A stretch of 20,849 nucleotides of DNA from Bdellovibrionota bacterium (GCA_044356455.1 JBIKWF010000076.1:1-20849), one strand, 5' to 3'. Positions 1 through 20,833 are shown, numbered from the stretch's first letter. Notes: generated from the sequence alone by a model not told the origin. Made by a program: numbers and translations.

Positions 1-197
1 AGGCGGTACCCTAGGTCTATTAATTCGCAGTCATAGAGCACCGGAAGCATGACCTCTTTGGCAACCTTGATGCTCTGCTTTTGGAGCTCGCGGAATAGGC
101 ATGCCTTGTAGACCTGCTCGAAGAGGCCTGGTCCTAGAAGTGAGTGCACCTTGATAGCCGCACCTATAATTTTTTCGGTAATCTGGTTGATTTCCAT
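1..197 (-). CDS. GxxExxY family protein (putative PD-(D/E)XK nuclease superfamily), 5' part only; runs off the window edge
   Basis: My translation of the minus strand from ATG at 197 gives MEINQITEKIIGAAIKVHSLLGPGLFEQVYKACLFRELQKQSIKVAKEVMLPVLYDCELIDLGYR with no stop. It contains the GPGLFEQVY (GxxExxY) signature and the typical IIGAAIxVH N-terminus. Not in the ORF track because there is no stop in the window. Confidence 0.92.
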   Translation of the reverse strand, partial: MEINQITEKIIGAAIKVHSLLGPGLFEQVYKACLFRELQKQSIKVAKEVMLPVLYDCELIDLGYR

Positions 198-229
198 CTC
201 CGCGGTCTCCGTGTCTCCGTGTCTCCGCG
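198..229 (-). repeat. Tandem 8-nt repeat arm (CGCGGAGA-CACGGAGA-CACGGAGAC-CGCGGAG) directly abutting the GxxExxY start codon
   Basis: + strand ctccgcggtctccgtgtctccgtgtctccgcg; related arms at 533-556 (inverted) and 677-698. Confidence 0.9.
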
Positions 230-233
230 ACCA

Positions 234-346
234 AGGAGTGTGTCCCGTAGAAACATAAATCTTCATTTTGGACACAATCCGTAGGTGGGCTGTCCCGTTG
301 CCACCACAACATGTAGTGGTCGGAACTTTCTACGGGACAGACTCCT
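234..346. mobile_element. 113-bp MITE-like element, copy 1
   Basis: 20-bp terminal inverted repeats (AGGAGTGTGTCCCGTAGAAA / TTTCTACGGGACAGACTCCT, 1 mismatch); 7 differences in 113 bp from the copy at 11965-12077; too short to encode a transposase. Confidence 0.85.
272..319. promoter_or_regulatory. Tandem NrdR-box-like motifs inside MITE copy 1
   Basis: CCACAACATGTAGTGG (304-319) fits the NrdR box consensus acaCwAtATaTwGtgt; weaker ACACAATCCGTAGGTG (272-287) starts 32 bp earlier. Confidence 0.45.
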
Positions 347-532
347 AGCCCTTCTATCCCTAATCGACAAATCGGTAGAAAAGTTGCTTAGAAACCATAC
401 CAAAGTTAGAAATACGGAGGAGAACAGATTGAGCAAGCGGATGCTCCCTGCGGTCGCACCGCTGCTCATAGCCGCTCTCTGCCTACTAGAATGTTCGAGG
501 GAACTCTCTAGATGGGGTTAAGAAGGGATTAG

Positions 533-698
533 CGCGGAGACACAAAGACCGCGGAGGGGAGATAGAATCGAGATTTTGCTCAGCTCTGTGCCTTAGCATA
601 ATTGCTAGTCATCCTGAACATTCGCAAACAAAATCCTGGTAACACCTAGAAAGTTACAAATTTGCGGGCGAACACGCCGCGGTCTCCGTGTCTCCGCG
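533..698. repeat. Inverted pair of 8-nt-unit repeat arms (533-556 and 677-698) bracketing about 120 bp of non-coding DNA
   Basis: cgcggagacacaaagaccgcggag ... ccgcggtctccgtgtctccgcg; same family as 198-229. Confidence 0.8.
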
Positions 699-727
699 GC
701 CTATCTCAAGCCGAGTTACGACGCCAG

Positions 728-2291: not shown

Positions 2292-2506
2292 GGAGCCTCT
2301 GAAAAACTAGCCTCCGCGTACCCTGCGTCCCCGGCTCCGCGTTATTAAACACTTTTCAAGTAACGCGGAGCCGTCTACGCCTTACGGCTGCGCCGAGCCA
2401 GGCTTAAGTGCGGCCGCGGCGCAGCTTTGGCGGAGCCGGGGACGCTGAGTACGCGGAGGGAAAGCCGCTCACCGAAAAGTCAATTTCGGGGTTTTTCAGA
2501 GGTTCC
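2292..2506. mobile_element. Nested MITE-like element A: IS5-like shell, palindromic 9-nt-unit core and a 56-bp inner insert
   Basis: 16-bp TIRs GGAGCCTCTGAAAAAC / GTTTTTCAGAGGTTCC (1 mismatch) flanked by TTAG direct repeats (2288-2291, 2507-2510); inner palindrome 2311-2459; insert 2374-2429 flanked by GCGGAGCCG direct repeats. Confidence 0.85.
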
Positions 2507-3792: not shown

Positions 3793-3869
3793 TTTAACGC
3801 GAAGGGCGCGATGGACACGGAGGTACTTAATTCTCTTCCCTTCGTGTCCATCGCGCCCTTCGTGTTAAA
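3793..3869. repeat. 31-bp-stem palindrome of the 9-nt-unit family between convergent genes; possible terminator role
   Basis: tttaacgcgaagggcgcgatggacacggagg (3793-3823) pairs with ccttcgtgtccatcgcgcccttcgtgttaaa (3839-3869): 29/31 Watson-Crick, the other two G-T on the + strand. Confidence 0.9.
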
Positions 3870-3878
3870 GCTTTCGCT

Positions 3879-3926
3879 TTCGAAGTGCCTGTAATTCGAA
3901 GTGTCTGTAATTCGAAGTGTCTGTAA
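3879..3926. repeat. Three tandem copies of the 16-mer TTCGAAGTGYCTGTAA
   Basis: Units at 3879-3894, 3895-3910 and 3911-3926; one mismatch overall. Confidence 0.92.
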
Positions 3927-6134: not shown

Positions 6135-6345
6135 GGAGCCTCTGAAAAACTCCCCCTCCGCGTACTCAGCGTCCCCGGCTCCGCCAAAGCTGCGCCGCGG
6201 CCGCACTGAAGTCTGGCTCGGCGCAGCCGTAAGGCGTAGACGGCTCCGCGTTACTTGAAAACTATTGAATAACGCGGAGGACGCAGAGTATGCGGAGGAA
6301 AAACGGGACAGAAGAAGCGCGATTTTTAGGTTCTTCAGAGGTTCC
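6135..6345. mobile_element. Nested MITE-like element B: same shell orientation as A, core inverted
   Basis: GGAGCCTCTGAAAAAC ... GTTCTTCAGAGGTTCC flanked by CTGA/CTAA; core 6155-6298 closely matches the reverse complement of 2311-2459; insert 6185-6240 flanked by CGGCTCCGC repeats. Confidence 0.85.
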
Positions 6346-8183: not shown

Positions 8184-8876
8184 CTATAAATTATCTATCC
8201 CAAAGCTGTATTCAACCAGCTTCCCGCCATAGAAGTAATAGCGGGCGTAATAGGAAAGTGCATCGTAGTGCTTGAGAAAATCAGAGGTCAAGTTCGTCTC
8301 AATAGAATAAATGATCACCGTGTATGGTCCTTGCGTGTCCACCTTGAATTGGTTCCCAAAGTAAGAAGTTACCTCACTCAGAGACATGCCAAGCTTAATC
8401 CCACGGAAAGAAATGAATTGTTCTAGCGGGAGGACACAGGGCTCAGGCAATTTTGTCTGCTCGCTTGAACTGCCTGTTGGAGAAGGGCCCGGTGAAGAAT
8501 AGTCCGCCTCGAGGGAGGCCTCCAAGGCTTTTCGCCTCTCCTGCCCCACGACGCTAAATTGCTGAAAGCTATTCTTCCAGCGCCCTGTATAGTGAATAAG
8601 CTCAAGCAACTCTTTTTTGTCACTACTAGTACACCTGAGCAACTCTCGCCGATTCCCTGCCGGACGAAGCACCAGCTGACTCCCAAGCACATCTTCGGCG
8701 CTTTGCCGGTAACTCAGGAGGATGCCACTTACCCCAAGATCCACATTCTTGGGATATGAGTTAGGGGGAGACTGGGCCTCTACTACGCAGGGGCCAATTG
8801 CCTCGCAATAGGAGCAAAGCAAGCAGGCCCCAAGAAGTTGAAAGATTCTCCGCACCGTGAAGACATGTAATTGCAT
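8184..8876 (-). CDS. Hypothetical, probably exported protein
   Basis: 230-aa ORF filling the gap; hydrophobic Cys-containing N-terminus; C-terminal GIKLGMSLSEVTSYFG motif like BamE/BLIP-type small domains; start uncertain. Confidence 0.65.
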   Translation of the reverse strand: MQLHVFTVRRIFQLLGACLLCSYCEAIGPCVVEAQSPPNSYPKNVDLGVSGILLSYRQSAEDVLGSQLVLRPAGNRRELLRCTSSDKKELLELIHYTGRWKNSFQQFSVVGQERRKALEASLEADYSSPGPSPTGSSSEQTKLPEPCVLPLEQFISFRGIKLGMSLSEVTSYFGNQFKVDTQGPYTVIIYSIETNLTSDFLKHYDALSYYARYYFYGGKLVEYSFGIDNL

Positions 8877-9092
8877 GGTTGAAGTATAAAGCTCCGCTTA
8901 GTGAGCGCCAGACCGAATTAGAGCCTTTAATCGAGAGGAATGAATGGAAATTTCGCATGAAAGGCGACACGCAGTACCTTTGGCTCTAGTAGTGGACTCG
9001 AGTTTGGGTCAAATTCAGCTTAAGGGCGACCAGCAGACGTATGAAGAATTCCATTCCCGAATTTCGATTCCGGGATTTATGAGGAGGACAGC

Positions 9093-9521: not shown

Positions 9522-9651
9522 GGCCTCTCTGAGAAACCTTCCTCTGTGTACCTCCGTGTCCTCCGTGGTGAAATTTTCATGAAAAAATTCACCTCAGAGG
9601 GCACGGACGTGCACTGAGGTGTCTTATGAATAAAGGTCTTTCAGGGATTCC
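9522..9651. mobile_element. Diverged element C: degenerate shell plus palindromic 9-nt-unit core, without the 56-bp insert
   Basis: Ends GGCCTCTCTGAGAAAC / GTCTTTCAGGGATTCC flanked by CTAG/CCAG; core cctctgtgtacctccgtgtcctccgtggtgaa...ttcacctcagagggcacggacgtgcactgagg. Confidence 0.7.
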
Positions 9652-11964: not shown

Positions 11965-12077
11965 AGGAGTGTGTCCCGTAGAAACATAAATCTTCATTTC
12001 GGACACAATCCGTAGGTGGGCTGTCCCGCTGCCACCACAACATGTAGTGGTGAGAGTTTTCTACGGGGCAGACTCCT
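11965..12077. mobile_element. 113-bp MITE-like element, copy 2
   Basis: 20-bp TIRs (2 mismatches); CTAG at both ends (11963-11966, 12076-12079); about 94% identical to 234-346. Confidence 0.85.
12003..12050. promoter_or_regulatory. Tandem NrdR-box-like motifs inside MITE copy 2
   Basis: ACACAATCCGTAGGTG (12003-12018) and CCACAACATGTAGTGG (12035-12050); both identical to copy 1. Confidence 0.45.
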
Positions 12078-12230: not shown

Positions 12231-12611
12231 ATGGAAATTCCTGAAGAGATTAAGCTATTTCTGCTCGAGAGCTACGAAAACCTCGACAAGGTTGAGCAGG
12301 ACTTGCTTGCCCTTGAAAAAGATCCTTCAAATGCCGGCCTGCTCAATAGTGTTTTTCGCTGCATTCACACGATTAAGGGCAATAGTGGCTTTTTGGGGCT
12401 CTCGACCCTAGAGGTCGTCTGTCATAAGGGCGAAGCTGTCCTTGATCGCCTTCGCTCCGGTGCTCTTCAATTCAGTGAGGGACTTAACTCTGACCTCTTG
12501 GGTTTCATTGATTTTGTCCGCCTTGAGCTTCAGGGAGTTGAATCCTCGGGGGAAGATCCAAACTTAGCTTCAGAACCCACTCTTCATCGCCTCTCAAAAT
12601 ACCTGAACTAA
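12231..12611 (+). CDS. Stand-alone Hpt (CheA P1-like) protein
   Basis: FLLESYENLD...FRCIHTIKGNSGFLGL...CHKGEAVLDRLRSG; stops at 126 aa. Confidence 0.9.
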   Translation: MEIPEEIKLFLLESYENLDKVEQDLLALEKDPSNAGLLNSVFRCIHTIKGNSGFLGLSTLEVVCHKGEAVLDRLRSGALQFSEGLNSDLLGFIDFVRLELQGVESSGEDPNLASEPTLHRLSKYLN

Positions 12612-12660
12612 TTCTTCAAGATTGCTTCCTGGAAAACAGTTCTTTACGCCGAGATCCCGC

Positions 12661-12688
12661 TAAAGAATTCGCTGCCCCTATTCGATAG
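12661..12688 (+). promoter_or_regulatory. Candidate sigma-28 (FliA/SigD) promoter upstream of cheA
   Basis: TAAAG...TTCGATAG with TAAA-N16 spacing, compared with consensus TAAA-N15/16-GCCGATAA; context fits. Confidence 0.35.
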
Positions 12689-12874
12689 CGACTATATACG
12701 ACGGGAACCGAGTGCAGATCGTTCTGCATCGTAGAACTGATACGAGCGGAAACTCCAGCGGATCACCGCGACCATAGAAATTCGAGAGCCCCCGCTAGCA
12801 CTCTCCCATTTCTTAGGTTGCCCTCTGGCCTCCGCGGCAATCAGGTTGCTCCAACTAAGAGGTAGAGGAAGAGT

Positions 12875-15544
12875 ATGGACGAGCATCAACAGATTGTTGA
12901 CGAATTTCTTGTTGAAGCTACAGAAACGCTCGACAATCTTGACCAAGACCTTGTTGCGCTCGAGTCCGACCCCTCGAATAAATCGACGATTAATAAAATT
13001 TTCCGCGCCGTCCATACGCTTAAGGGCACCTGCGGATTTCTTGCCTTCACCAAATTAGAGTCCATCACTCATGTAGGGGAAAACCTACTCGACTCTGCTC
13101 GTGCCGGGCGGCTTCAAATAACTCAGGAAGTCACCACTGGCCTTCTAAAACTCATCGACGCAACTCGAAAAATCTTGGCAAATATAGAAGCCACGCGAAC
13201 TGAAGGCGAGGAGGACTATAGCGAGCTTCGTAACTTACTCGTGCACCTCGCAAGTCAGGCGACTGCAAAATCGGTTCCCATTGAGCTAACTCAAGTGGTT
13301 GAAAGCTCAGAACTTGCTCACGCGGCGGCAGTTCCGCTTGAAACTCCCCCCGCGATTGAGTCCCCGCCCCCAGCCCAAGAGCCGGAGTTTCTCGCCTCAG
13401 TCCTTGCGGAAGCCACGCCTTCAACTTCCGTGAATGTCGAAAAGCCGGCTGACGCAAAGCCAGCTCCAGGTCTCGTGAGTTCAAGTGAAGTTGACGAACT
13501 AGAAAGAATATTCTGGGCGGCCAAGGAGGAAGTCGAGGCGGCAAAGCCCCCCGCATCTGCCTTGCCAGCTACTACCTTGCCAGCCACTGAGTTGCCAGCC
13601 ACTGCCTTGCTAACCACTGCCTTGCTAACCACTGGCGAGGCTCCGGAAGCATGCGCTGCGAAACCGCAGCTTCCCTCGGAAGAGTTCAGTAGCCTCACAG
13701 CCACTACTCCTGCAGCTATTTCCAGTCCCGTACCGACAGCTACCGCGGTGATCCCATGTGAAGCAACACGAGGGATGACAGCAAAAACCACCACGCCTCC
13801 ACCAGCGGAGAAATCTATGACACCCACAAAAGAGAGCCCGGGCGTAGAAGAGGATAAAAAGAGTGCCCTTTCAGACTCATCCCTAAGAGTTGATGTCGCG
13901 CTCCTTGACCAACTGATGAATCTTGTTGGCGAACTCGTGCTTGCACGGAATCAAATACTTCAGTTCACCAAGACACAGACCAACTCGGAATTTGTAAGCA
14001 CTTCTCAACGTCTTAATTTGATTACTTCTGAGTTGCAAGAGCAGGTCATGAAGACTCGCATGCAGCCTATTGCAAATGTCTGGAACAAGTTCCCGCGCGT
14101 GGTACGTGACGTTGCACACCAGTGCGGAAAACAAGTTCGCATAGAAATGGAGGGAAAGGAAACTGACCTCGACAAAACAATCATCGAGGCCATTAAGGAC
14201 CCCCTCACCCACATCGTAAGAAACTCGGTCGATCACGGTATTGAGAAGCCAGACGTTCGAATCGCCAACGGAAAAGAAGCAGAGGGACGACTGCTACTCC
14301 GCGCCTTTCATGAAGGTGGGCACGTAATCATAGAAATCGCTGACGATGGCGCAGGCCTCAACACGGATCGCATTAAGTCGAAGGCGATTGAACGCGGCCT
14401 CATTACTGCCGAGAAAGCGGCGAAGATGAGTGAAAAGGAACTCAACTCTCTCATCTTTTTACCCGGCTTCTCGACCGCAGAACAAGTGACGAATCTTTCA
14501 GGCCGCGGTGTCGGCATGGACGTAGTGCGTTCAAATATTGAGCGTATCGGAGGGAGCACAGACTTGAGTAGCACGTTCGGCAAAGGAACTACTCTGCGAA
14601 TAAAAATACCTCTTACCCTCGCCATTGTGCCCGCGCTTATCGTCTCCTGTGGAGGTGAGCGTTTCGCTATCCCACAAGTGAGTCTTGTCGAACTGATGCG
14701 CGTTGAGGGCAGCAACATTGCAAAGCAAGTGGAATCGATTCATGGATCCAAGTTTTACCGACTTCGCGGCAACTTACTACCGTTGGTGTATCTCTCGGAG
14801 GAGCTCCGTCTGAAACATGACAACTCTGCGAATCTCGAAAAACTGAATATAGTAGTAGTAAAGGCCGAAGAGCGCTCATTCGGGCTTGTGGTAGAGGTTG
14901 TTCATGACACAGAAGAGATCGTAGTCAAACCTCTCGGTAAGCAACTCAAGCAACTAAGTGTGTTCGCTGGGGCCACCATCATGGGAGATGGCCGTATCGC
15001 TCTCATTCTGGATGTGCTTGGCCTTGCTCGTAAAGCTCGGGTAGTAGGCGAAGCGGCAAAGCGCGCGGCTGAGCAAAAGAAGGAAGTGGTCGACACCTCC
15101 GCCGCAAGCAACAGACAAACGTTACTCATTGTCCAGACGGGAAAGGGCACCCGAGCCGCAGTCCCCTTAGCCGCGGTGCATAGGCTTGAGGAGTTCCCGA
15201 TTTCCTCAATCGAACGCGCAAGTGGGACTGAGGTAGTTCAATATCGAGGCGGCATCCTGCCCCTTGTCGATCTTCCGCTTCTCCTTACGGGCTCAGCAAG
15301 TATTGCAAGTGGAGACGGAGACCAGCGGCAGGTGGTGGTCTATTCCACCGGTCGCGGTGTCTGCGGATTCGTAGTGGATCGCATCCTCGATATCGTAGAG
15401 GACCATGTCAATGTGCAAGTAGGGTCCGCGCGGCCAGGAGTGAAAGGCTCAGCTATAATTCAGAAACAAGTAACTGACATGCTCGACCTTGATAAGATTA
15501 TCGAGTCAATGCCGGGCTTCACCTCTTCTTCAACGGTTTCGTAA
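12875..15544 (+). CDS. cheA: Chemotaxis histidine kinase CheA (Hpt, long linker, dimerisation, HATPase, two CheW-like domains)
   Basis: HTLKGTCGFL, LMNLVGELVLARN, HIVRNSVDHGIE, DDGAG, GFST...SGRGVGMDVV, IPLTLAI. Confidence 0.97.
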   Translation: MDEHQQIVDEFLVEATETLDNLDQDLVALESDPSNKSTINKIFRAVHTLKGTCGFLAFTKLESITHVGENLLDSARAGRLQITQEVTTGLLKLIDATRKILANIEATRTEGEEDYSELRNLLVHLASQATAKSVPIELTQVVESSELAHAAAVPLETPPAIESPPPAQEPEFLASVLAEATPSTSVNVEKPADAKPAPGLVSSSEVDELERIFWAAKEEVEAAKPPASALPATTLPATELPATALLTTALLTTGEAPEACAAKPQLPSEEFSSLTATTPAAISSPVPTATAVIPCEATRGMTAKTTTPPPAEKSMTPTKESPGVEEDKKSALSDSSLRVDVALLDQLMNLVGELVLARNQILQFTKTQTNSEFVSTSQRLNLITSELQEQVMKTRMQPIANVWNKFPRVVRDVAHQCGKQVRIEMEGKETDLDKTIIEAIKDPLTHIVRNSVDHGIEKPDVRIANGKEAEGRLLLRAFHEGGHVIIEIADDGAGLNTDRIKSKAIERGLITAEKAAKMSEKELNSLIFLPGFSTAEQVTNLSGRGVGMDVVRSNIERIGGSTDLSSTFGKGTTLRIKIPLTLAIVPALIVSCGGERFAIPQVSLVELMRVEGSNIAKQVESIHGSKFYRLRGNLLPLVYLSEELRLKHDNSANLEKLNIVVVKAEERSFGLVVEVVHDTEEIVVKPLGKQLKQLSVFAGATIMGDGRIALILDVLGLARKARVVGEAAKRAAEQKKEVVDTSAASNRQTLLIVQTGKGTRAAVPLAAVHRLEEFPISSIERASGTEVVQYRGGILPLVDLPLLLTGSASIASGDGDQRQVVVYSTGRGVCGFVVDRILDIVEDHVNVQVGSARPGVKGSAIIQKQVTDMLDLDKIIESMPGFTSSSTVS
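13556..13630 (+). repeat. Five in-frame 15-bp tandem repeats in the CheA linker
   Basis: tctgccttgccagct / actaccttgccagcc / actgagttgccagcc / actgccttgctaacc / actgccttgctaacc. Confidence 0.9.
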
Positions 15545-15552
15545 GGAAACAT

Positions 15553-16017
15553 ATGAGCAGCGATACTACTTCGGCGAGGAGCAGTCAGGAACGCACACAG
15601 TTTGCGACCTTTTTCATCGACAGCATGATGTTCGGCATCAACGTCACGATGGTTCAGGAAGTCATTCGCCTCCAACGCATGACACCTGTTCCGCTTGCTC
15701 CAGATACGGTCGAAGGACTCATTAATCTTCGGGGGCAAATTATTACCGCCTTGGACCTGCGTACGCGGCTCGGCCTTCCTAAACGAAGCGACGAAAAGCC
15801 CCCCATGAACGTCGTCGTAACTACAAACGAGGCCGTAGTAAGCCTACTTGTCGACCGCATTGGGGACGTCGTCGAGGTCGGGCGAGAGCAGTATGAGGAC
15901 ACGCCAGACACGCTCGCCCCCGTTGCCCATTCACTTGTCACAGGTGTTTACAAGCTCAAGGACCAACTCCTGCTTGTGCTCAATGCCGAGAGAGCGGTGG
16001 AGGTACAGACTCATTAA
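15553..16017 (+). CDS. cheW: Chemotaxis adaptor CheW
   Basis: VQEVI, TPVPLAP, GLINLRGQIITALDLR, LLVDRIGDV. Confidence 0.96.
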   Translation: MSSDTTSARSSQERTQFATFFIDSMMFGINVTMVQEVIRLQRMTPVPLAPDTVEGLINLRGQIITALDLRTRLGLPKRSDEKPPMNVVVTTNEAVVSLLVDRIGDVVEVGREQYEDTPDTLAPVAHSLVTGVYKLKDQLLLVLNAERAVEVQTH

Positions 16018-16044
16018 CTCTCTTACGAAAGAGGAACAGAAACT

Positions 16045-18249
16045 ATGGGACGAGAGACACTATTAGTTAATGCGGATGAACCACTCTTTGACCGCCTTGG
16101 GGGAACTCCTGCGGTAAAAGCCACGGTCGACGAATTCTACAAGCGCGTGCTGGCTGATCCGATGCTCAAGGACTTCTTTAAGTCCACGAACCTTAAATGG
16201 CTCAAGCAGCAACAAACCGATTTCTTCACTCAAGCACTTGGTGGCCCGGCAATCTACGATGGAGCGGATATGCGCTCCGCGCATGAAGGGATGGCGATAG
16301 AGTCCAAACATTTTGGGCAAGTCGCAAAACATCTTGCGGGAGCCCTCCGTAGTCTTGGAGTTGCGGAAGAACTTGTTGAGGAGGTTCTCGGGCTCGTAGG
16401 CCCCCTCGCGAGCGTCATTGTTAACACACAGTCAGAAGAGTCAAAGGAAACTATTCAAGGGAAAAGTGAGGGAACTATGAGACCAGGAAGCGAAAACGTG
16501 AATGGAACATCAGGGCACGTTGAACAATCAGATACACAGGTTAGGCAGGATGCTTATCGGCTTGTTGAGAACGCACCGACAAACATTATGTACGCGGACA
16601 AAGACCTCAATATTGTCTATATAAATCCGGCTTCTCGAGCAACACTAGAGAGTCTCGCGCAATACCTCCCAGTGGAAATTGACCAGGTTGTGGGATCTAG
16701 CGTGGATATCTTTCATAAGAACCCAAAGCACCAAAGAAAGATTCTCAGTAATCCCAAGAATCTTCCTGCCAAGGCTATGATCCAAATCGGACCAGAGACG
16801 GCAGACCTGCTCGTAAGCCCGATGTATGATGACTCAGGCAGATACACGGGTCCCATGGTGACCTGGAGCGTGGTTACCGAGAAGATTAAGCTAGAAGCTG
16901 AGCAAGCTCGCATCCAGTCTATGGTGGAGAATGTCCCGATCAACATTATGATGGCTGACCGCGATTTGAACATTCTTTACATGAATCCGGCCTCTACGAA
17001 CACGCTACAAAAGCTCGCGCAGTATCTGCCCGTGCCGGTAGCGAAAGTAGTTGGGTCCTCCATCGATATCTTCCACAAGAATCCTGCACATCAGCGTAAA
17101 ATCCTTGCGGAGCCAAGAAACCTCCCCATAAAGACTACCATTCAGCTTGGACCCGAAACCGCGGAGCTCTTGGTAAGCGCAATCCTTGATAACCAGGGTC
17201 GATACGTAGGGCCAATGGTTACGTGGGAAGTTATCACGGAGAAGCTCCGTCTCATTAAAGAGAACGAAGATCGTCAAGCAAGGGAACGCTCCTCTGCTGA
17301 AGAGCTGCGCACCAAGGTTGATAGCATGCTACAAGTCGTTCAAGCCGCCTCTCAAGGTGACCTCACCAAGCAGGTAACCGTCTCCGGAGACGATGCAATC
17401 GGGAAGATGGGCGAAGGGTTGTCTAAATTCTTGGGAGATCTGAGAAAGATCATCGCTCAGATTGCCGAGAATGCGCACAACCTTGCCGCGTCCTCAGAGG
17501 AGCTCACCGCAGTAGGTACTCAGATGGCAGTTAATGCTGACGAGACTGCGCAGCAATCGAATGTCGTCTCTGCCGCCTCTGAAGAGGTGAGCAAGAATGT
17601 GCAGACGGTGGCTACCGGAACCGAAGAGATGAGCGCAAGCATTCGCGAGATTGCTTCGAACTCGAATGAGGCCGCAAAGGTCGCTACTCAAGCAGTAACG
17701 GTTGCCAAAACAACTAACGAGATAATCTCCAAGCTCGGCGTAAGTAGCGCCGAAATTGGTAAGGTAATCAAAGTTATTACTTCTATTGCGGAACAAACGA
17801 ACTTGCTCGCACTGAATGCGACGATTGAAGCCGCACGAGCAGGAGAGGCCGGAAAGGGCTTCGCCGTCGTAGCCAATGAAGTAAAAGAGCTCGCAAAGGA
17901 AACGGCTAAAGCCACCGAAGAGATCGGTCAAAAGATTGGAGCAATTCAATCTGACACCGGGAGCGCGGTTAAAGCCATTGGCGAGATCGGGGATATCATT
18001 AACAAGATTAATGACATCTCGAATACCATTGCGAGCGCGGTCGAAGAGCAGACGGCAACTACTAACGAAATGACGAGAAACGTCTCTGAAGCTGCACGAG
18101 GCAGCAACGAGATCGCAGAGAACATTTCGAGTGTGGCTAAGGCTGCGCAGAGTACCACCGAGGGAGCTAACAACTCCAAGCAAGCGTCAGCAGAGCTTGC
18201 GAAGATGGCGGCAGCGCTTCAGAAGTTGGTAGGGCAGTTCCAGTACTAA
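16045..18249 (+). CDS. Soluble methyl-accepting chemotaxis protein: group I truncated haemoglobin + 2 Aer2-type PAS + HAMP + signalling domain
   Basis: LFDRLGG...EFYKRVLAD...[10 protein letters not shown]...SAH (2/2 globin); two PAS repeats with DIFHKNPxHQR and terminal [35 protein letters not shown]; no TM segment. Confidence 0.95.
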
Positions 18250-18267
18250 AAAAGTTCTGAAGGAACC

Positions 18268-18346
18268 CTCTCTGTGAACTCTGTGTCCTCTGTGGTTTGT
18301 ATCTCATATTAAAATTAACCACAGAGGGCACAGAGAGCACGGAGAG
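18268..18346. repeat. Palindrome D of the 9-nt-unit family inside the che cluster
   Basis: ctctgtgaa-ctctgtgtc-ctctgtggtt, AT-rich spacer, aaccacagag-ggcacagag-agcacggag. Confidence 0.88.
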
Positions 18347-18481
18347 TACCACGGGGAAGGGTTAATTTTCTGGGCTCGTTAGACATTCTCAGACCAAGGT
18401 ACACGGAAAGGTTCCCCTTGCTCTGACTGCCGCCTGCGACTAAGCAGGCTCGCGAAGGTCAATTTCAGGAGCAAATAGCAT

Positions 18482-18862
18482 ATGGCACCGAAAGCACTTA
18501 TTGTCGATGACTCGACCGCAACAAGATTTATTCTAGCTAAGATGCTCCGTGAGATCGGCTTTGAGTCAGTTCAAGCTGAGGATGGCCAGAAGGCACTCGA
18601 CGTACTTAGAGCAAATAAAGAGGTAACCCTCGCCCTTGTCGACTGGAATATGCCCGTCATGAATGGCTTGGACTTCATTATTGAACTTCGCAAGAACAGC
18701 GACTACTCAAATATGAAAGTGGTAATGGTGACCACCGAAACAGAGATGATGCAGGTCGTGCGCGCCATAGAGGCGGGGGCGAACGAGTATCTCATGAAGC
18801 CATTTACCAAAGACATGGTCCTCGACAAGATGAAGCTCATGGGGCTTGGCACCGATTCGTAA
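18482..18862 (+). CDS. cheY: Chemotaxis response regulator CheY
   Basis: LIVDDS, VDWNMPVMNG, MVTTE, YLMKPFT; AGGAG Shine-Dalgarno; operon context. Confidence 0.93.
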   Translation: MAPKALIVDDSTATRFILAKMLREIGFESVQAEDGQKALDVLRANKEVTLALVDWNMPVMNGLDFIIELRKNSDYSNMKVVMVTTETEMMQVVRAIEAGANEYLMKPFTKDMVLDKMKLMGLGTDS

Positions 18863-18883
18863 CTTTTCTATGCGGGAGAATGT

Positions 18884-19993
18884 GTGGCCAAGATTCGCGT
18901 ACTCATCGTCGATGATGCAGTGGTGATAAGAAAGATCCTATCGGATACCCTTGCCCAAGATCCGGATATTGAAATTGTGGGTCTCGCGGCCAATGGCAAG
19001 ATTGCGGTACAGAAGATTACGCAGTGCAATCCCGATATCATTACTCTCGATGTTGAAATGCCAGAAATGAATGGCATAGAAACAGTCAAAAAAATTCGAG
19101 AAACTCATCCCAAGCTTCCCATCATCATGTTCAGCACTCTCACCGAACGCGGAGCGGAGGTAACTCTTGAGGCCCTAAGTGCGGGGGCAAGTGACTATGT
19201 CACCAAGCCAGCAAACGTTGGAAGCGTCGCAAATGCAAAGGAAATGGTTAAGAGCGAGATGCTTGCAAAGATTAAAAGCCTCACACGCCATTCGCCCCAG
19301 ATGCTGCTTGCAGAGGCTGGTGCGCCGACACCGCCCAGACCATCGAAGCCACAAGCCGCTCTTTCACCCAGGGCTCACTCATCAATCAGAGTTCCCCTTG
19401 AAATGGTATGTATCGGTGTCTCAACCGGCGGACCTAATGCACTTGCGGCTTTGCTACCCACGCTCCCTGCCACTTTTCCACTACCGATTGTAATTGTTCA
19501 GCACATGCCTCCTCTCTTTACTAAAATGCTCGCTCAGCGACTCGACGCGCAGTGCAACCTGCGGGTGCATGAAGGGACTGAGGGAATGAAAGTCATGCCC
19601 GGGAATATTTATATTGCCCCTGGCAACTTCCACATGGAACTGCGGCGAAGTGATTTTCTCTACCTGACGCTTCATCAGGGCCCCCAGGAGAATTCATGTC
19701 GTCCTGCGGTGGATCCCCTTTTTAGATCAGTAGTGAGCCTCTTTGGTGCAGGCACGCTCGGCATTATTCTTACGGGGATGGGGCAGGACGGCCTTAATGG
19801 CTGCGCTCATATCCGTGAAATCGGTGGGCAGATAATCGCTCAGGACGAAGCGTCAAGCGTGGTTTGGGGAATGCCTGGCTACGTCGCAAACGCAGGACTT
19901 GCGGATGTCGTCCTGCCGCTTGACAAGATCGGAGCTGAAATAGTCGCCCGCGTTGTTAAACGCGGTGCGTCACTTCACGCGGCGCGAATTTAA
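18884..19993 (+). CDS. cheB: Chemotaxis methylesterase CheB (receiver + esterase domains)
   Basis: TLDVEMP, GVSTGGP, VQHMP, RPAVD, LTGMGQDG. Confidence 0.97.
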   Translation: MAKIRVLIVDDAVVIRKILSDTLAQDPDIEIVGLAANGKIAVQKITQCNPDIITLDVEMPEMNGIETVKKIRETHPKLPIIMFSTLTERGAEVTLEALSAGASDYVTKPANVGSVANAKEMVKSEMLAKIKSLTRHSPQMLLAEAGAPTPPRPSKPQAALSPRAHSSIRVPLEMVCIGVSTGGPNALAALLPTLPATFPLPIVIVQHMPPLFTKMLAQRLDAQCNLRVHEGTEGMKVMPGNIYIAPGNFHMELRRSDFLYLTLHQGPQENSCRPAVDPLFRSVVSLFGAGTLGIILTGMGQDGLNGCAHIREIGGQIIAQDEASSVVWGMPGYVANAGLADVVLPLDKIGAEIVARVVKRGASLHAARI

Positions 19994-20011
19994 TTTTTAA
20001 GATGGGGCCCT

Positions 20012-20833
20012 ATGGGAATTAGTGGAAATGATTTTGAGTATCTGACTTCAATCATTCGCCAGGATTCGGCCATTGTGCTTGAGAAGGGCAAAGAATACCT
20101 CATCGAGTCGCGCCTTGCTCCCGTGGTAAAGGAACACGGATTGGAGTCGCTTGAGCAATTAGTCGCGAAGCTTAAGAATCCAGGTTCAACTTTTTTACGC
20201 GCGGAGGTAGTTGAAGCACTTACCACGAATGAAACTTCCTTCTTTAGAGACATAGAGCCGTTCGAGGTGCTTAAGAGCACCCTCATCCCCGAGCTGATAC
20301 AAAAGCGCAAAGACAAGAAGCAACTCTCTCTTTGGTGCGCTGCAAGCTCAACTGGGCAAGAACCATATACCGTGGCGATGTTGATACGTGAACATTTTCC
20401 TCAACTTAACGATTGGAAGATTACTTTCATCGCAACCGATCTCTCAAAGGAGGTTCTAGAAAAGGCGCGCTCCGGCGTGTTTTCTCAAATGGAAGTGAAT
20501 CGCGGCCTTCCCGTCACCTATTTGGTCAAATATTTCGAGAAGATTGGATCTGACTTCAGAATCAAGGAAAGCATCCGAAAAATGGTGCGATTTGAGGAGC
20601 TCAATCTCATTAAGCCCTTTACTATCATTCCTGAAGTAGATCTCGTGATGATACGAAACGTCCTGATCTATTTCGATGTGCAGGTAAAGAGAGAGATTCT
20701 TGGCAAAATTAGAAAGGTTCTTCGCTCAGATGGCTATTTGATTTTGGGGGCTGCTGAGACTACTCTGAACTTAGACGAGAAATTTGAACGGCGTGCAGTA
20801 GGGAAATCCAGCTGCTATCATCAGAAGGGATGA
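20012..20833 (+). CDS. cheR: Chemotaxis methyltransferase CheR
   Basis: TTNETSFFRD, WCAASSTGQEPY, ATDLS, RNVLIYF, LILGAAET. Confidence 0.97.
   Translation: MGISGNDFEYLTSIIRQDSAIVLEKGKEYLIESRLAPVVKEHGLESLEQLVAKLKNPGSTFLRAEVVEALTTNETSFFRDIEPFEVLKSTLIPELIQKRKDKKQLSLWCAASSTGQEPYTVAMLIREHFPQLNDWKITFIATDLSKEVLEKARSGVFSQMEVNRGLPVTYLVKYFEKIGSDFRIKESIRKMVRFEELNLIKPFTIIPEVDLVMIRNVLIYFDVQVKREILGKIRKVLRSDGYLILGAAETTLNLDEKFERRAVGKSSCYHQKG

Follow-up and report, generated by a model that had tools for sequence, protein, structure and literature searches.

The closest described systems pair an enzyme gene, located between inverted repeats, with gene-less dimers of the same repeats dispersed over the genome. 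Work on TIRtrons/TIRYT (Di Nocera et al. 2013, PMC3733652) and REPIN-RAYT (PMC3337134, PMC6006769) describes several gene-repeat pairs per genome, both dimer orientations and variable spacers. In these systems, the enzyme is an HUH/Y1 tyrosine transposase, and the REP forms a short hairpin whose 5' foot reads GTAG/GTGG. We analysed a 20,849-nucleotide stretch of DNA from a Bdellovibrionota bacterium (the window), which carries a comparable unit at its left edge. The unit works like a TIRtron or REPIN-RAYT pair but is no member of these systems: its enzyme is a GxxExxY protein with a PD-(D/E)XK domain and not an HUH protein, and its arms are tandem arrays of 8-9-bp units without a foot and not REP hairpins. 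Unlike those systems, the GxxExxY unit spreads between phyla, here apparently riding integrons and IS5 elements.

Integron gene cassettes are the second point of reference. PMC8876359, PMC8946536, PMC3053210 and PMC7923331 describe a G|TT crossover, R''/R' complementarity and an extra base in the L box, all of which recur at this locus, as do attI-like and secondary-site insertion, tandem copies and an own promoter (here a promoter-like motif). The attC, attI and cassette features are used as defined in PMC7923331, PMC8946536 and PMC3053210. Compared with the usual cassettes of these sources, the cargo differs, being a reversed arm-wrapped nuclease gene or a non-coding core between like arms, and so does the distribution, with about two dozen scattered copies, several of them behind integrase-less attI copies. 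The GxxExxY family is common; PMC3424549 tabulates its function as 'Unknown', with many transfers, and one paper mentions a GxxExxY protein as the neighbour of a reverse transcriptase. A search of the open-access literature found no link of GxxExxY to flanking repeats or integrons, and a text search for the arm sequences returned only unrelated animal papers. What this locus adds is the cassette form and the separation of the movers.

Because the window is an entire contig (C36 of assembly G000), its GxxExxY gene is truncated by the assembly: the minus-strand ORF starts with the ATG at 197-195 and continues for 65 codons up to the contig end. A sequence-only reading had proposed this gene, and it proved real, with a PF13366 match at E 1.8e-16 (61 bits, cut-off 22). 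Furthermore, the 65 amino acids are 100% identical to the N-terminal 65 of an intact 138-aa copy on contig C216, which scores 140 bits with TIGR04256 (cut-off 35). The same assembly holds a frameshifted copy on C138 and two paralogs with about 50% identity on C1 and C211; we refer to window, C216 and C138 as type A, to C1 as type B and to C211 as type C. All four copies outside the window have an inverted arm at the 3' end, with a separate arm sequence for each paralog type. In C216 this downstream arm overlaps the final 8 codons, therefore the stop lies just beyond the arm and not before it.

The missing end of the window gene is probably found on contig C18, which synteny with the relatives G001 and G002 identifies as the left neighbour of the window; the join rests on this synteny. 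C18 starts with the final codons of the gene, followed by the inverted arm and the tail, and 141 nt of the gene fall into the gap. The inverted arm expected downstream of the gene is present in C216, C138 and C18. In G002 the genes flanking the insertion are only about 20 bp apart, therefore all sequence between them was inserted in G000; G001 has an unrelated gene at that place. Contig depth in four sequencing runs suggests three to four copies of the type-A gene. The frameshift of the C138 copy (C138:29627-30042; L186:10777) is missing from the collapsed contigs of the four runs, which have a depth of about 3-3.6 times single copy.

The left arm was confirmed exactly as quoted in the sequence-only reading, with four 8-bp units, the final one ending on the base that precedes the ATG (Table 1); C216 and C138 have three units instead. 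Both related arms nearby were also found, although the second one starts at 675 and not at 677. Five of six further proposed loci bear arms (2311-2459, 3798-3864, 6155-6297, 9542-9616 and 18270-18344), all of types that differ from the window gene's own, whereas the sixth turned out to be a copy of an arm-less 111-bp element. The unit consensus is C(A/G)C(A/G)(A/G)AG, with a spacing of mostly 9 bp, but also 8 and 10 bp. Genome-wide, generic arms occur 857 times in G000 and 7 times in the reversed sequence, the strict three-unit pattern 413 times and not once, respectively, and the 22-bp type-A arm exactly 34 times. The arms are not REPs: taken alone, an arm has only a weak fold (-4.6 kcal/mol, z -1.4), and it is built as a tandem array instead of a hairpin and lacks a GTAG foot. 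In the listed flanks of the three Y1 matches of G000, no generic arm was present.

Table 1. Features of the window, with positions counted from its first nucleotide.
Feature	Position	Strand	Basis or remark
GxxExxY gene, 5' half, type A, codons 1-65	1..197	-	PF13366; identity to C216; remainder on C18 and in 141-nt gap
Left arm of four 8-bp units, the last with a GGAG and directly next to the ATG	198..229	-	sequence; arm scan
111-bp miniature inverted-repeat element between promoter-like motif and arm	235..345	.	missing at this place in C216
Promoter-like motif RGCAACTT-N14-CGATT	362..388	-	recurrence upstream of GxxExxY genes
attC-like site closing the gene-bearing cassette	419..480	+	pairing in 5 copies; R'' 419-425; crossover 474/475
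Tail (start) of second, gene-less tandem cassette copy	475..532	+	tail also after right arm in C216, C138 and C18
Right arm of gene-less cassette copy	533..556	+	sequence; arm scan
118-bp non-coding core in place of the gene	557..674	.	recurs between like arms and flanks on other contigs
Left arm of gene-less copy	675..698	-	cassette cut off here, without promoter and attC
IS5-type MITE shell with type-D arm pair, TTAG duplicated	2292..2506	.	elsewhere, such ends adjoin IS5 transposases
Gene-less type-C palindrome, cognate to the C211 GxxExxY gene	3798..3864	.	17-bp spacer resembles 3' end of the C211 gene
IS5-type MITE shell with type-D arm pair	6135..6345	.	
Degenerate IS5-type MITE shell, back-to-back CACAGAG-type arm pair	9522..9651	.	
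111-bp element, second copy in the window, arm-less	11966-12076		
Back-to-back CACAGAG-type arm pair, related to arms of the C1 type-B gene	18270..18344	.	

The 111-bp element next to the gene is separate from the arm system. It is flanked by TA on one side and by a mutated copy of TA on the other, and its end motif has 194 matches in G000 but none in the reversed sequence. It also holds an inner GTAG-footed hairpin, and a form of 235-250 bp carries an additional insert. Gene and core each exist with and without this element; such mosaic copies suggest exchange at the arm or may reflect misassembly, and due to the latter possibility we give the pattern no weight. The 118-bp core was found with like arms and flanks on C21, C55, C127, C130, C169 and C177. 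An origin of the core from the gene was considered and rejected: its best match to 109 GxxExxY genes scores 14.0, with a 95th percentile of 13.5 for shuffled sequence.

The motif upstream of the gene is present in front of 14 of the 24 GxxExxY genes of the order, in 13 cases 43-60 nt from the model start, and has 34 exact sites in G000 (the one in the window and 33 others) compared with 2 in the reversed sequence. The motif is a likely promoter. GCAACTT-N14-CGAT also precedes a Y1 transposase-like gene in G000 as well as genes that we take to be ORF6N-like and toxin-antitoxin-like, and it resembles an ECF-sigma promoter used by small selfish genes. A sigma-54 reading was dropped because the GG-N10-GC spacing is kept in only one of the three paralog types.

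We then compared the flanks of 109 distinct full-length GxxExxY genes, which came from relatives, from 79 loci in many phyla and from 2 viral contigs; five genes were left out due to short flanks. An inverted-repeat score of at least 14 between the two flanks was obtained for 69 of the 104 remaining genes, but for only 3 of 277 neighbouring ORFs, which bears out the expected enrichment at the flanks; 35 of the 104 genes scored below 14. For flank pairs combined across loci, the score was reached in 46 of 1040 cases, therefore the arms of one gene are more alike than the arms of different genes. In a second gene set, 12 of 14 genes had inverted arms. Arm likeness rises only weakly with protein identity (Mantel rho 0.22 over 41 loci; 0 of 2000 permutations), and co-inheritance alone would give such a rise. 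Mismatches between paired arms at 55 loci had no G-U-type strand bias (52 vs 56), and thus DNA is favoured over RNA. Altogether, gene and arms form one conserved unit in many phyla, with an arm variant specific to each paralog. Homing by integration into a solo palindrome was also considered; it is not a general model, since bracketing by direct repeats is found in a minority of 9 of 99 loci. One locus (L054:1492-3284) carries two arm-flanked GxxExxY genes 1.4 kb apart, whose neighbours are presumably histidine-operon genes.

On the plus strand, the type-A unit is organised as G|TT, tail, arm, gene (backwards), arm, promoter-like motif and attC-like site. In the latter, R'' carries AAC and R' carries GTT, and at the L box the left arm is longer by one base; the window's own copy is degenerate, with GCT in place of GTT at R', and core bases 4-7 deviate from GTTRRRY. 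In 5 copies 92% of the cells pair, compared with at most 55% when slid, and there is no double-sided change. In twelve of the 13 attC copies the terminal G|TT is followed by sequence that differs from copy to copy, and the thirteenth is the tandem junction of the window. Using a purpose-built heuristic instead of a curated model (a stricter first version missed the family-A site), we detected attC-like sites upstream of 9 of the 37 GxxExxY genes of the phylum, compared with 4 of 591 control ORFs and 3 of 82 GxxExxY genes of other phyla. The extra L-box base was on the left arm, read against the gene, in all nine sites (6 C, 3 G); the top-strand C found in six of these nine is a further likeness to published cassettes. 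The R'' 7-mer is repeated at the far end in 5 of 9 sites, in four different sequences, whereas swapped controls gave 6 of 170.

An integron integrase with a cassette array was identified on contig C92 of G000 (TIGR02249 above cut-off). Its attI has four integrase-less copies in the assembly, each followed by G|TT and a type-A cassette. Among 24 cassette starts in G000, 8 are at attI-like sites, a further 3 come directly after the attC of the cassette itself as tandem copies, and the remaining 13 are elsewhere; the C18 junction was likened to the relatives' attI crossover by eye only. No GxxExxY gene was found in 20 loci around integrase genes. In view of these ends and junctions, the arm-gene-arm unit most likely lies backwards in an integron gene cassette, and we are fairly confident that this cassette is mobilised by IntI.

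The integrase-less attI copies are located at C40:106-308, C99:210-416, C173:143-350 and C196:299-422, compared with C92:1589-1796. In three of them the likeness begins at or adjoining a GTT some 208 bp ahead of the crossover, which would fit joint travel of the attI region and the cassette in one circle. On C18, C4 and C177 the cassettes are preceded by attI-like sequence of a second type. At C180:9016-9112, C44:20187-20242, C54:18764-18860 and C118:11843-11747, a sequence that we take to resemble the 5' end of a group IIC intron starts directly behind the TTGT of attC-like hairpins, two of which are the gene cassette's own attC. Neither Rfam nor a reverse-transcriptase search gave support for such a putative group II intron. 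PMC7923331 gives TTGT/T in R'' as the target of IIC-attC introns.

Most gene-less arms of G000 have a different vehicle. Back-to-back arms are the dominant class with 245 pairs, of which 163 have both and 71 have one common shell end. There are 267 IS5-type shells in the assembly, and 231 of these carry arms under the strict pattern. YTAR, the target of the IS5 group, is present at the left end of 211 and at the right end of 211 of the 267 shells, with an identical 4-bp duplication in 132 shells. These shells hold 535 of the 857 arms and at least four arm types, but none of the 45 type-A arms. Ends shared with IS5 transposase elements and 4-bp YTAR duplications are also features of IS5-family MITEs. 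In metagenomes the shell end borders IS5 transposases: 7 of 8 tested ORFs, picked by eye out of 21, pass the NF033581 cut-off, and an IS5 remnant bearing the shell end is present on C113 of G000. Taken together, the junctions make it very probable that most of the gene-less arm pairs in G000 owe their copy number to an IS5 transposase. An IS4-type transposase on C213 was rejected as the mover, since its ends differ from those of the MITE shells. Nearly all IS5 shells of G000 carry arm palindromes, in contrast to short-shell matches in other metagenomes, where 0 of 50 fit the arm pattern and one element is arm-like by eye. In other organisms the IS5 shell has many other palindromic cargos (metagenome loci L193-L272). 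A search of plasmids with the 33-bp shell end gave no match, and three viral matches were not informative.

In a second genome, G057, 191 arms lie within a different transposon shell, which has duplications of 9-10 bp; a GxxExxY gene was not detected in this genome at E <= 1. About 95 near-identical arm palindromes share one shell there (L142-L161), which we take to be ISAs1-like; a similar shell holds type-E arms in G000. Since IS5 shells hold most arms of G000 and the arms of G057 multiplied without a gene, a high copy number needs no nuclease, and it gives no evidence for the nuclease as a mover.

Among relatives, the abundance of repeats follows the gene as expected: 12 of 16 genomes with the gene contain the strict three-unit pattern, compared with 10 of 45 genomes without it (Fisher p 5e-4; related genomes are not independent, and the genomes are incomplete), and four of the 16 gene-positive genomes had zero matches. 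We ranked the arms of 123 genes against dispersed arms, sampling 10 loci per genome. In G009 the resident gene's arms came first for 5 of 5 dispersed variants and in G004 for 5 of 6, while in G041 they took first or second place for 10 of 11. In G013 they came first for only 1 of 10 variants and in G019 for 0 of 14 (ranks 2-9). No shell is common to the palindromes of G009 or to those of G041, and each of the listed copies has its own spacer and flanks; variable spacers are also reported for REPINs in PMC3337134. For the commonest arm types of G000 (B1, B2, D, E and F) no exactly cognate intact gene is present in the assembly, and G031 has type-A arms but no GxxExxY gene at E <= 1. The idea that gene-less palindromes are derivatives or targets of the gene is supported in part, with arms matching the resident gene in G009, G004 and G041 and with internally deleted genes between arms. 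The shell-less cognate palindromes of the two relatives G009 and G041 are compatible with a role of the nuclease.

Turning to the protein, the catalytic residues D67, E77 and K79 do not vary among the 100 intact genes compared. The G24-E27-Y30 motif is present, but the conservation of G24, E27, Y30 and Y95 is partly imposed by the search patterns. Of 52 close pairs, 20 have a finite dS, and their dN/dS of 0.03-0.26 indicates purifying selection. The predicted model (pLDDT 94.6) is nearest in fold to the Cas4/AddAB/lambda exonuclease group (TM about 0.5), and the protein carries D-ExK and QxxxY motifs: Cas4, AddA and lambda exonuclease were in the top rows of Foldseek, none at E <= 0.001, and in a structure comparison with a best Z of 8.2, Cas4 (Z 6.8-7.9) was among ties. 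A sequence search of the PDB gave only RelE rows at E >= 0.2. Unlike the Cas4 group, the protein is a 128-aa stand-alone domain without iron-sulfur cysteines, and fold likeness shows no function. No four-helix-bundle gene was found in G000. The GxxExxY protein is most likely an active nuclease, with the arms as candidate substrate.

Based on these data we propose the following mechanism, which we consider about as probable as its failure when taken as a whole. A small PD-(D/E)XK gene is enclosed by inverted arms of its own, made up of 8-9-bp units, and this arm-gene-arm unit most likely lies backwards in an integron cassette, behind a likely promoter of its own. IntI would insert this unit at attI-like and secondary GTT sites in this phylum, and in G000 the IS5 transposase would amplify arm pairs once these lie between IS5 ends, as the junctions suggest. 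The nuclease, a minimal Cas4/RecB-like domain, would bind the unit arrays and nick the stem or cruciform formed by two paired inverted arms, after which host repair may copy or delete the interior between the arms. The outcome would be that both arms of a copy are kept alike, that gene and core are swapped, and that shell-less palindromes are seeded in relatives. For the step at the centre of this mechanism, action of the nuclease on its cognate arms, we lean slightly towards yes. The arm-gene-arm design across phyla, together with a genome full of gene-less arms, makes the arms a likely and directly testable target; they give each GxxExxY protein a named candidate substrate, and the three protein-arm pairs of G000 can be used for cross-specificity. 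If the nuclease does act on the arms, this would be a second route, beside RAYT, to enzyme-made dispersed palindromes. A wider generalisation, in which GxxExxY proteins are the enzymes of phylum-spanning selfish repeats that cut 8-9-bp arrays, home into or spawn palindromes without transposase chemistry, and whose arms and genes ride integron cassettes and the shells of several transposon families, is put forward only tentatively.

The arms could instead serve only to control a harmful small nuclease, either as operators through which it represses itself or as an RNA stem whose 3' arm masks the ribosome-binding site in the 5' arm, with the gene as an addiction or defence passenger and the palindromes as debris that other elements spread and that is kept as terminators. 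The position of the left arm fits this explanation, as it ends 0-15 nt ahead of an ATG in 27 of 47 loci and carries GGAG here, and the promoter-like motif is common to other small genes, which we take to be toxin-antitoxin-like and other selfish genes. In addition, most G000 arms were very probably amplified by IS5. PMC8876359 describes promoters within cassettes and toxin-antitoxin cassettes. However, a sense-strand RNA stem should favour G-U mismatches, and the paired arms lack such a bias. Searches with the PADLOC defence models gave no match save weak Cas4 matches for one of three proteins, and both the shell-less palindromes that match the resident gene and an abundance that tracks the gene would be left unexplained. 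We therefore regard the control explanation as rather doubtful.

The sequence-only reading had favoured an autonomous element, i.e. a GxxExxY gene that moves its own unit and the gene-less palindromes by itself, with integron and IS5 shells as late and incidental captures. Several observations are in agreement with such a gene: other phyla mostly lack the attC-like site (3 of 82) yet keep the arms, the plain arm-gene-arm layout occurs in 45 of 99 loci, and the cognate palindromes of G009 and G041 are shell-less with differing spacers and flanks. Moreover, C143 and C42 carry internally deleted GxxExxY genes between arms, and in-frame stops, which are frequent in selfish genes, occur in 9 of 109 genes. 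At this locus the claim is not supported, however: the unit is bounded by the ends of an integron cassette, and its insertion sites are attI-like or GTT; the ends that moved in this genome are those of integrons and IS5, and G057 multiplied its arms in another shell without a detectable gene. The 128-aa domain is without a recombinase or transferase motif, and we know of no strand-joining chemistry of a PD-(D/E)XK domain. When contigs of the four runs were compared with the C138 copy, no joint skipping the whole cassette, and thus no excised or empty allele, was among the 15 of 37 joints listed; contigs drop rare variants. Autonomous movement is therefore unlikely, and the locus illustrates how a unit can spread without moving itself, via integron and IS5 machinery. 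A further alternative is that RNase III cuts the paired arms out of the transcript, as happens with intervening sequences of rRNA, so that insertions do no harm, while the nuclease drives homing at the DNA level. It would suit arms that pair over 24-45 bp and several copies between same-strand genes, but it is very improbable given that the gene has its own promoter-like motif and sits between convergent genes, that the mismatches have no RNA strand bias and that no Rfam family exceeds its threshold in the window.

Apart from the cassette-borne unit and the IS5 shells, the window contains an ordinary-looking chemotaxis cluster at 12231-20833, with ORFs that we take to encode Hpt, CheA, CheW, a receptor, CheY, CheB and CheR. 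Tandem repeats of 15 bp are located within the linker of the CheA-like gene (13550-13634), and three tandem 16-bp repeats adjoin the type-C palindrome (3879-3926). Another short repeat family at 8842-8920 has many matches in G004 and some in G001.
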